Shown here one piece after another: positions 122-523 of a stretch of DNA of 1,796 nucleotides. The DNA lies in NCBI RefSeq assembly GCF_003334255.1, contig NZ_QOWU01000149.1; one strand, written 5' to 3'. Source of the stretch: Escherichia coli. Lineage in GTDB: Bacteria > Pseudomonadota > Gammaproteobacteria > Enterobacterales > Enterobacteriaceae. The notes under the pieces were generated by a model. That model was given only the letters and a program-made list of their open reading frames with translations. It was not told the DNA's origin and made no database searches. A program made the position numbers and the translations under genes. Every line of letters starts with the position of its first letter. Position 1 is the stretch's first letter.

Positions 122-523
122 ATGGCACCCGTTTCAGGTGAGAGAATGGACGACAGAATTCTCCGGTATATGCAGCGTGTTGTGAGAAATTCCCGCAACC
201 CTGAATTTATGAATGAAGTTAAAGACGCCTGCCTTAAAAAGCAGGCGTTTTGCTTTGAAGCGCCGGATGGTTTTCTGGTGCTGCGTTCTGTGCTCAGTGA
301 CGATGGTATCCCTTATGTTCTGGTGTTACTGGGCGTGTGTACGGGGAGTAAGAGTGTTGAGCGTTATCTGCCGGAGGTGAAGACATTAACCCGCCTGGCT
401 GGCGGACGCTGGGCCGAATTTCATACGGCAAGACGAGGATTTATCCGGCTGGGAAAACGTCTGGGCTTTGAGCGAATGCCGGATGATGAGGATGGCTTCA
501 TGGTGTTCAGGATAGCAGTCTGA
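122..523 (+). CDS. Hypothetical protein, 133 aa; C-terminal region has a weak GNAT-like 'KxLGFE' motif (unconfirmed)
   Basis: ORF with ATG at 122 and TGA at 521-523. An in-frame TGA at 107-109 means the start cannot lie further upstream. GAGG at 108-111 is 10 nt before the ATG; an alternative in-frame ATG at 146 is preceded by AGGTGA (136-141). The ORF is followed by an intrinsic terminator. Product unknown. Confidence 0.7.
   Translation: MAPVSGERMDDRILRYMQRVVRNSRNPEFMNEVKDACLKKQAFCFEAPDGFLVLRSVLSDDGIPYVLVLLGVCTGSKSVERYLPEVKTLTRLAGGRWAEFHTARRGFIRLGKRLGFERMPDDEDGFMVFRIAV

Follow-up and report, generated by a model that had tools for sequence, protein, structure and literature searches.

An open reading frame (ORF) at positions 122-523 of a 1,796-nucleotide (nt) stretch of Escherichia coli DNA (contig NZ_QOWU01000149.1; the whole stretch is called the window below, and its features lie on the + strand) heads a gene module that probably encodes the internal-virion (ejection) proteins of Shiga-toxin (Stx) podophages of the 933W/Sp5 type and their relatives. 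The reading that we favour, with better than even confidence, is that the ORF specifies an auxiliary, probably non-structural factor of GNAT fold that helps the ejection proteins of the downstream genes to be prepared or loaded. Such a mini-GNAT protein would be expressed together with the late genes during infection, would most likely stay outside the virion, and would help to prepare or load into the particle a P22 gp7-like protein of 218 amino acids (aa), three further proteins and a polyvalent protein of 2,789 aa. The helper function is the part that we infer; it is set beside fold, synteny and purifying selection, which come from the analyses below, and dispensability in phage Sp5, which comes from the literature.

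The window is part of the late region in a Shiga-toxin podophage of the 933W/Sp5 type. Across its 1,796 bases it shares 99.8% identity with Escherichia phage PhiR5_2 and 94-97% with about 190 Stx-converting phages of this type (Sepvirinae), in which the tail-fibre genes are followed by lom, a small hok-type gene, the ORF, genes for proteins of 218, 148, 83 and 421 aa, and a giant gene of about 2,790 aa. The 133-aa ORF is present as the initial annotation described it. It is ORF75/ECs1237 of Sp5 and vb_24B_43 of Phi24B, and it matches phrog_610 ('unknown function') with an E-value of 3e-69. It turned up in 196 phage records and, among 5,426 complete E. coli genomes, in 419, where all listed records give 'hypothetical protein'. 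Annotations elsewhere are nearly all 'hypothetical' too; a doubtful public label, 'portal protein', is attached to it in phage phiSTEC1589-Stx1c (PQ600364.1 46353-46712). There were 58 close homologues, and a profile search of 1.84 billion representatives returned 210 clusters at 50% identity, all of 105-165 aa. The ratio of nonsynonymous to synonymous substitution rates (dN/dS) was 0.06-0.26 against 11 of 12 homologues with 44-98% protein identity, dS not being computable for the twelfth. We therefore conclude that the ORF is a protein-coding gene under purifying selection.

Translation probably starts at ATG 146, giving 125 aa, rather than at ATG 122, since the homologues of Salmonella, Yersinia, Pectobacterium, Dickeya and Serratia, with 123-125 aa, align from residue 9 of the 133-aa ORF, the phrog_610 profile starts at the same residue, and the Shine-Dalgarno-like motif GGTGAGAG upstream of ATG 146 (137-144, as read from the sequence) also stands before the GTG start codon of a clade in which ATG 122 has no counterpart. 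We describe the gene as a coding sequence for a 125-aa protein with a predicted mini-GNAT fold at 146-523, identified by its phrog_610 match, predicted fold and dN/dS, with ATG 122 as the alternative annotated start.

The initial annotation had tentatively proposed a GNAT acetyltransferase from three peptides, FLVLRSV, YVLVLLGV and ARRGFIRLGKRLGFERM. All three are present (272-292, 314-337 and 428-478), and in an AlphaFold model they form strand b3, strand b4 and the b5-a4 segment, respectively, as had been supposed. The model, predicted with high confidence from a diverse alignment, follows the GNAT element order (b1-a1-a2-b2-b3-b4-a3-b5-a4-b6-b7), though b1 is missing. The enterobacterial subfamily lacks this strand, and more distant members have a b1-like N-terminal extension, such as MKLRLADP. 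The best conserved residues of the family are A34, V45, A63, T94, R96, G98, R101 and G107; the last five (125-aa numbering) mark the b5-a4 segment at 428-478, which occupies the position of GNAT motif B. As a check, the initial annotation had suggested structural comparison, and this gave a GNAT-like fold with acetyltransferase-named matches: Foldseek against AFDB50 returned family members together with Vibrio and Photobacterium proteins of about 130 aa (21-28% identity) that UniProt names 'N-acetyltransferase domain-containing', and an E. coli fragment of 67 aa with 98% identity that bears the name 'GNAT family N-acetyltransferase'. The Pfam search suggested alongside it found no GNAT family, nor did any other sequence method. 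Pfam gave no match to the protein even at an E-value of 10, and none at 0.1 in any of 34 close or 139 distant relatives; NCBIfam and PADLOC gave no match to the window protein; and sequence and profile searches of the PDB, with the single protein and with profiles of the 34 and 139 relatives, gave no useful match. Thus, the GNAT proposal stands at the level of the modelled fold and not at that of a sequence link to any GNAT family. As part of the favoured explanation, and held with the same degree of belief, the model suggests that the protein is a minimal, highly diverged member of the GNAT fold.

Three further observations concern the wider family. A BFVD match to a 138-aa protein of Xylella phage Prado was set aside, as this protein is not at the position of internal virion protein A (IVP-A), and Prado has no gene to separate the internal virion proteins from tail tubular B. 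A distant family member of 256 aa (P0114) carries a fused N-terminal domain of about 130 residues. DUF4376 is found in the gene immediately upstream at two loci (L005 and L006).

The initial annotation had treated the ORF as a unit separate from the downstream cluster. Comparison of 84 loci, 80 from IMG/VR and four from look-ups of encoding contigs (collected with a narrow alignment, with tblastn for the neighbours), indicates instead that it is the first gene of a conserved six-gene block. The five downstream genes (218, 148, 83 and 421 aa, and the giant gene) follow it throughout, apart from a small number of damaged or truncated loci. Homologues with 26-44% identity show the same order, with stop and start codons often overlapping; in distant relatives, tail genes (Phage_Tail_Tip, DUF4376) precede the homologue, which is packed tightly on the next gene and followed by proteins of about 195-229, 134-168, 83-188 and 395-500 aa and a giant InPase/RadC/LPD38 protein. 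The spacer to the next gene measures 7-8 nt in a Yersinia/Pectobacterium-type clade, 59-94 nt, with a conserved hairpin and T6, in the E. coli and Salmonella clades, and about 230-255 nt in another group (L065, L068-L072, L074-L076 and L087; ~7350-7600). The junction of the GNAT-like and gp7-like genes looks like a hot spot for the entry of small inserts; the insert in the 230-255-nt spacers contains a very strong hairpin (GAAAGCCCCGA...TCGGGGCTTTC) and an ORF for a small hydrophobic peptide. Two loci, each likely to be a decayed prophage, are disrupted: in L061 (7001-9891) an insertion of about 2.5 kb breaks the ORF after residue 73, and in L020 (~7283-7313) the 218-aa gene is missing.

The 218-aa protein (617-1273, with the Shine-Dalgarno sequence GAGGAG at 606-611; Sp5 ORF76, phrog_611) is the probable counterpart of P22 gp7 and T7 gp14, that is, of internal virion protein B (IVP-B), an ejection protein. 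An hhalign alignment of its family with that of P22 gp7 covers almost the full length (probability 59.5%, E-value 9e-5, 163 collinear columns), and the protein matches phrog_8003 ('virion structural protein') with an E-value of 7.6e-9. The N-terminus of the 218-aa family is almost invariant and rich in Gly and Lys (MGKGGGGS or MGGSKGGG). The counterpart motif in P22 gp7 is KGGKGG, exposed after removal of a 20-residue propeptide, and relatives with no propeptide begin MGSGGKGG. Both families have a hydrophobic, Gly/Ala-rich C-terminal stretch. This evidence, drawn from sequence comparison, is suggestive of homology between the 218-aa protein and P22 gp7 and does not prove it. Two more block genes reach into the window: the third gene of the block, for the 148-aa protein (1276-1722; Sp5 ORF77, phrog_596), and the start of the 83-aa gene (1732-1796; Sp5 ORF78, phrog_594), which is cut by the window end and is doubtfully labelled 'bacteriocin' in Shigella phage 75/02 (NC_029120.1 46388-46639). 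The giant protein at the end of the block is about 2,600-2,790 aa long (L001, 12329 onward; L003, 11343 onward) and has 2,789 aa in the 933W/Sp5-type phage; it contains LPD5, and a relative has InPase, RadC and LPD38. These polyvalent-protein domains fit a protein delivered together with DNA better than a tail part.

A small acetyltransferase-like gene at the head of a podovirus ejection block is a published pattern. The IVP-A of T7, gp13, matches acetyltransferases in HHpred, is required for morphogenesis and does not remain part of the virion (Hardies et al., PMC4819975); the same study treats P22 gp14 as a standard IVP-A homologue and reports small acetyltransferase-like genes heading the internal-virion-protein block in other podoviruses too (PMC4819975). 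A study of cobaviruses likewise places a GNAT gene beside the internal virion proteins (PMC6775973). We found the Stx-phage case in no record or paper. The window gene encodes a small acetyltransferase-like protein and lies immediately before the probable IVP-B gene; it follows the tail genes and heads the probable ejection block. No sequence homology to PF11090 or PF11039, the corresponding T7 and P22 families, was found, in a comparison that has little power. Thus, the gene has the fold and genomic position of IVP-A but belongs to a separate family by sequence.

Within the coding sequence, an RNA hairpin that resembles a terminator spans 222-257. An 11-bp stem (222-232 with 241-251) encloses an 8-nt loop and is followed by a U-rich tail, UUUUGCUUUG (folding free energy (dG) -19.4 kcal/mol, z -3.5). 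The hairpin covers codons 27-37 (D-A-C-x-K-K-Q-A-F-C-F), whose synonymous sites are invariant across 20 non-redundant homologues (GCC 19/19, TGC 19/19, AAA 14/14, AAG 17/17, CAG 18/18, GCG 17/20, TTT 19/19, TGC 16/16 and TTT 19/19); at four-fold codons elsewhere in the ORF, the commonest codon accounts for only 30-69% in the same homologues. Three stem pairs each join two third codon positions. The structure is kept in relatives with about 28-44% protein identity, where one pair is C-G, A-U or U-A, and it occurs once per locus, always inside the mini-GNAT gene; it is absent from the most distant locus, L004. In the hairpin alignment 98.1% of cells are paired, and none of 500 shuffles reached the observed covariation score, a control that relatedness alone can exceed; support for the hairpin is therefore mostly invariance, not covariation. 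The element resembles an intragenic intrinsic terminator or attenuator, placed at the entrance to the genes for the ejection proteins. A -1 frameshift site ('T AAA AAG' in the loop) was considered and rejected: the heptamer is lost in several clades (AAC AAG, AAT AAG, GAA AAG), and the hairpin encloses it instead of standing 3' of it.

The initial annotation also gave the ORF a leader structure and terminator of its own. The window opens with the 3' end of a Hok-family toxin gene (1-65, stop codon 63-65), labelled 'MokW-like host killing' in NC_029120 and present as a Hok-like ORF in locus L002, where a hok/sok-type locus with a Hok-like ORF of 46 aa lies between lom and the ORF (11778-12066). 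The Rfam sok model matches just upstream, with an E-value of 6.5e-6, below the gathering score. Both lom and hok are upstream of the gene in the E. coli clade only, where they part it from the tail genes; the non-E. coli clades have neither at that place, and the two are therefore inserts. A published 20-nt 'microRNA-size' RNA of Phi24B, 24B_1 (45711-45692), maps about 150 nt upstream of the window, within the part that the sok model matches, and may be a fragment of a Sok-type antisense RNA. The supposed leader is a GAAA-loop hairpin at 74-97 (dG -23.6 kcal/mol, z -6.2) that has no U-tract on the + strand and is listed only as a terminator-like site of the minus strand. It begins directly after the hok gene, 9 nt past the stop codon, and its flank is nearly invariant in hok-bearing loci; it is therefore no obvious leader of the ORF, a reading that we rejected. 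Judged by position, it may be the stem-loop at the 3' end of the hok mRNA. The window yielded no sigma-70-like promoter.

The terminator fared better in part. A hairpin resembling an intrinsic terminator (575-594), with a T-run to position 600, stands between the ORF and the 218-aa gene (575-600; dG -16.5, z -4.5). It is real, and it is kept in the E. coli and Salmonella clades only, with a compensatory change from C-G to A-T in the Salmonella clade (L055-L059, ~7370-7410); more distant relatives, with 7-8 nt from stop to start, lack it. The terminator arose late. Matches in the window to the Rfam models GlmZ, BSnc120, mir-459 and Six3os1 were far below gathering scores and were taken as noise.

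Genetic data for the block come from Sp5. ORF75, the window gene, was deleted singly and in frame, with primers given in the supplement (PMC5155283). Deletion of ORF76, the 218-aa gene, sharply lowered infectivity; ORF79 and ORF80 were essential and classed as tail-formation genes, and the essential genes include the one for the giant protein at the end of the block (PMC5155283).

Several points weigh against an assembly helper of the IVP-A kind. The nine essential late genes do not include ORF75, and its mutant is not one of those noted for a lower or higher titre (PMC5155283); under laboratory conditions a morphogenetic role, if there is one, is therefore auxiliary. In the E. coli phages, the ORF sits between inserts expressed in lysogens and a terminator, and a clone from a Phi24B expression library, CM19, which holds hok and the first ~120 nt of the ORF, reacted with serum raised against lysogen cultures. 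Phi24B lom is expressed independently of induction. Given the reactivity of CM19 and these lysogen-expressed neighbours, some expression outside the late programme is possible in the E. coli phages. BLASTP of the window protein against T7 gp13 or P22 gp14 returned nothing, and no PF11090 or PF11039 match was found in Pfam for any of the 139 family members. Alignment with hhalign gave 0.2% against the gp13 family and 2.9% against the gp14 family (a 25-residue stretch around 'YLPE'), values that are uninformative rather than negative, since the control alignment of gp13 with gp14 fails too. Motif A (Q/R-x-x-G-x-G/A), which binds the pyrophosphate of acetyl-coenzyme A (acetyl-CoA), is not kept, and the position in a4 usually held by Tyr, a common catalytic residue, is Gly or Ala.

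The initial annotation had itself recognised no clean motif A. The b4-a3 loop of the window protein reads C65-T-G-S68-K-S70; among the 139 family members, position 65 is S, C or G, the central Gly of the motif (position 68) is poorly conserved, being kept in only 39, and 78 have a small residue, Ala or Gly, at position 70. Because motif A is not clean and sequence links the protein to no GNAT family, enzyme activity is not established. That the protein acts by catalysis (acetyl or acyl transfer), rather than only by binding a partner, is a real possibility that we rate somewhat below even. A basic patch at the start of a4, T-x-R-[KR]-G-F-x-R (R96, G98, R101), could contact CoA phosphates or a partner protein.

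If the protein is instead an active acetyltransferase, it might be an accessory 'moron' or anti-defence gene product that modifies a host or defence protein or a small molecule, is partly expressed from the prophage with lom and hok, and has nothing to do with virion assembly. This would fit the local context in E. coli and a resemblance to AcrVA5. AcrVA5, an anti-CRISPR mini-GNAT of mobile elements (PDB 6iuf) that acetylates Cas12a, is encoded by an accessory anti-defence gene that is not known to have a fixed neighbourhood of structural genes; the window gene differs in holding a fixed place in a morphogenesis block. We regard the accessory reading as unlikely, though not negligibly so. Accessory genes are normally patchy between related phages, whereas this gene precedes five structural-type genes in fixed order even in clades that lack the inserts, with a spacing of 7-8 nt or an overlap. 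A 'moron' would have its own promoter and terminator and a patchy presence; here the terminator is confined to two clades, the window has no promoter-like site upstream of the ORF, and the gene keeps its place in every related locus examined. The lack of a PADLOC match and the degenerate motif A also argue against an active anti-defence enzyme, and the CM19 result loses force, as the clone also spans hok and lysogen cultures hold spontaneously induced cells.

The degenerate motif A, the ORF75 deletion with no reported phenotype, and the invariance of synonymous sites in codons 28-37 across clades, with one compensatory pair, would all suit a different account, in which the protein is a catalytically dead, GNAT-shaped relic whose frame is kept mainly for the 222-257 RNA element and the ribosome traffic that controls it. 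We find this quite improbable: purifying selection acts on the whole protein (dN/dS 0.06-0.26), the most conserved residues (T94, R96, G98, R101 and G107) lie far from the hairpin, a diverse alignment yields a high-confidence fold, and the most distant member, in L004 (26% identity), retains the protein and its position and not the hairpin. It is highly improbable that the likeness to GNATs is spurious and that the protein is of some unrelated fold or family, a view with which the failure of every sequence method to find a GNAT family, even at E-values up to 10, and the absence of canonical strand b1 would agree; the AlphaFold model and the Foldseek matches described above stand against it. 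Synteny, the gp7-like next gene, the published IVP-A cases, the Sp5 genetics of ORF76, ORF79 and ORF80 and the polyvalent domains of the giant protein speak for the auxiliary assembly factor, the reading that we prefer.

The late region of the short-tailed Stx phages is medically important and is annotated almost wholly as 'hypothetical'. Placing the ORF in the IVP-A class and the next gene beside P22 gp7 provides a testable framework for this late block. Since the ORF falls in that class and the next gene beside gp7, the Sp5 'tail' genes ORF76-80 probably encode internal or ejected proteins. The window gene would also add a third family, unrelated by sequence, to those in which small GNAT-like proteins recurrently pair with podovirus ejection proteins. 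The 222-257 hairpin is a separate regulatory candidate at the nucleotide level; together with the conserved N-terminus of the 218-aa protein, it is the part most worthwhile for experiment. One proposal connecting the two, which we consider a long shot, is that the IVP-A mini-GNATs are real enzymes that acylate or acetylate the invariant (M)G-x-GG-K-GG N-terminus of the neighbouring gp7-type ejection protein, for packaging or membrane insertion, and that the hairpin gates transcription into the ejection genes through translation of the ORF or antitermination. Such a modification would loosely recall the way in which penetration proteins of eukaryotic viruses are acylated at the N-terminus.

Compared with canonical GNATs (the N-terminal and ribosomal-protein acetyltransferases Naa20, Naa10/Ard1, Naa50 and RimI, and others), the window protein is only 10-15% identical in sequence and lacks both the Q/R-x-x-G-x-G/A loop and strand b1. 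It is 25-35 residues below the canonical enzymes in length, bearing out the remark in the initial annotation that it is shorter than typical GNATs. T7 gp13 (PF11090, phrog_308) is closer in kind. It has 138 aa to the 125 of the window protein, so both are small, and its AF2 model (pLDDT 93) shows the full GNAT element order. It also stands first in the internal-virion block, after the tail genes and before an IVP-B of about 200 aa, in the gene order 12, 13, 14, 15, 16. The two differ in that gp13 keeps strand b1 and the b6-b7 hairpin, is needed for morphogenesis whereas Sp5 ORF75 is dispensable, and has a gene preceded by a promoter, phi13.

We found no published statement on the mechanism of P22 gp14 in the literature searched, and profile searches of the PDB with gp14 and gp13 gave only a weak match of gp14 to the acetyltransferase PseH (E-value 0.15). 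In genomic setting, P22 gp14 (PF11039/DUF2824, phrog_651 'head morphogenesis') resembles the window protein: it has 151 aa, belongs to a temperate enterobacterial podophage, and is encoded between the tail needle gene and gene 7. The P22 genes run 26, 14, 7 (ejection protein), 20 and 16, and P22-type loci show DUF2824 (gp14), P22_gp7, Inj_translocase and gp16 in that order. The likeness extends to the next gene, for gp7, encoded downstream of gp14, is the best match for the 218-aa protein of the window.
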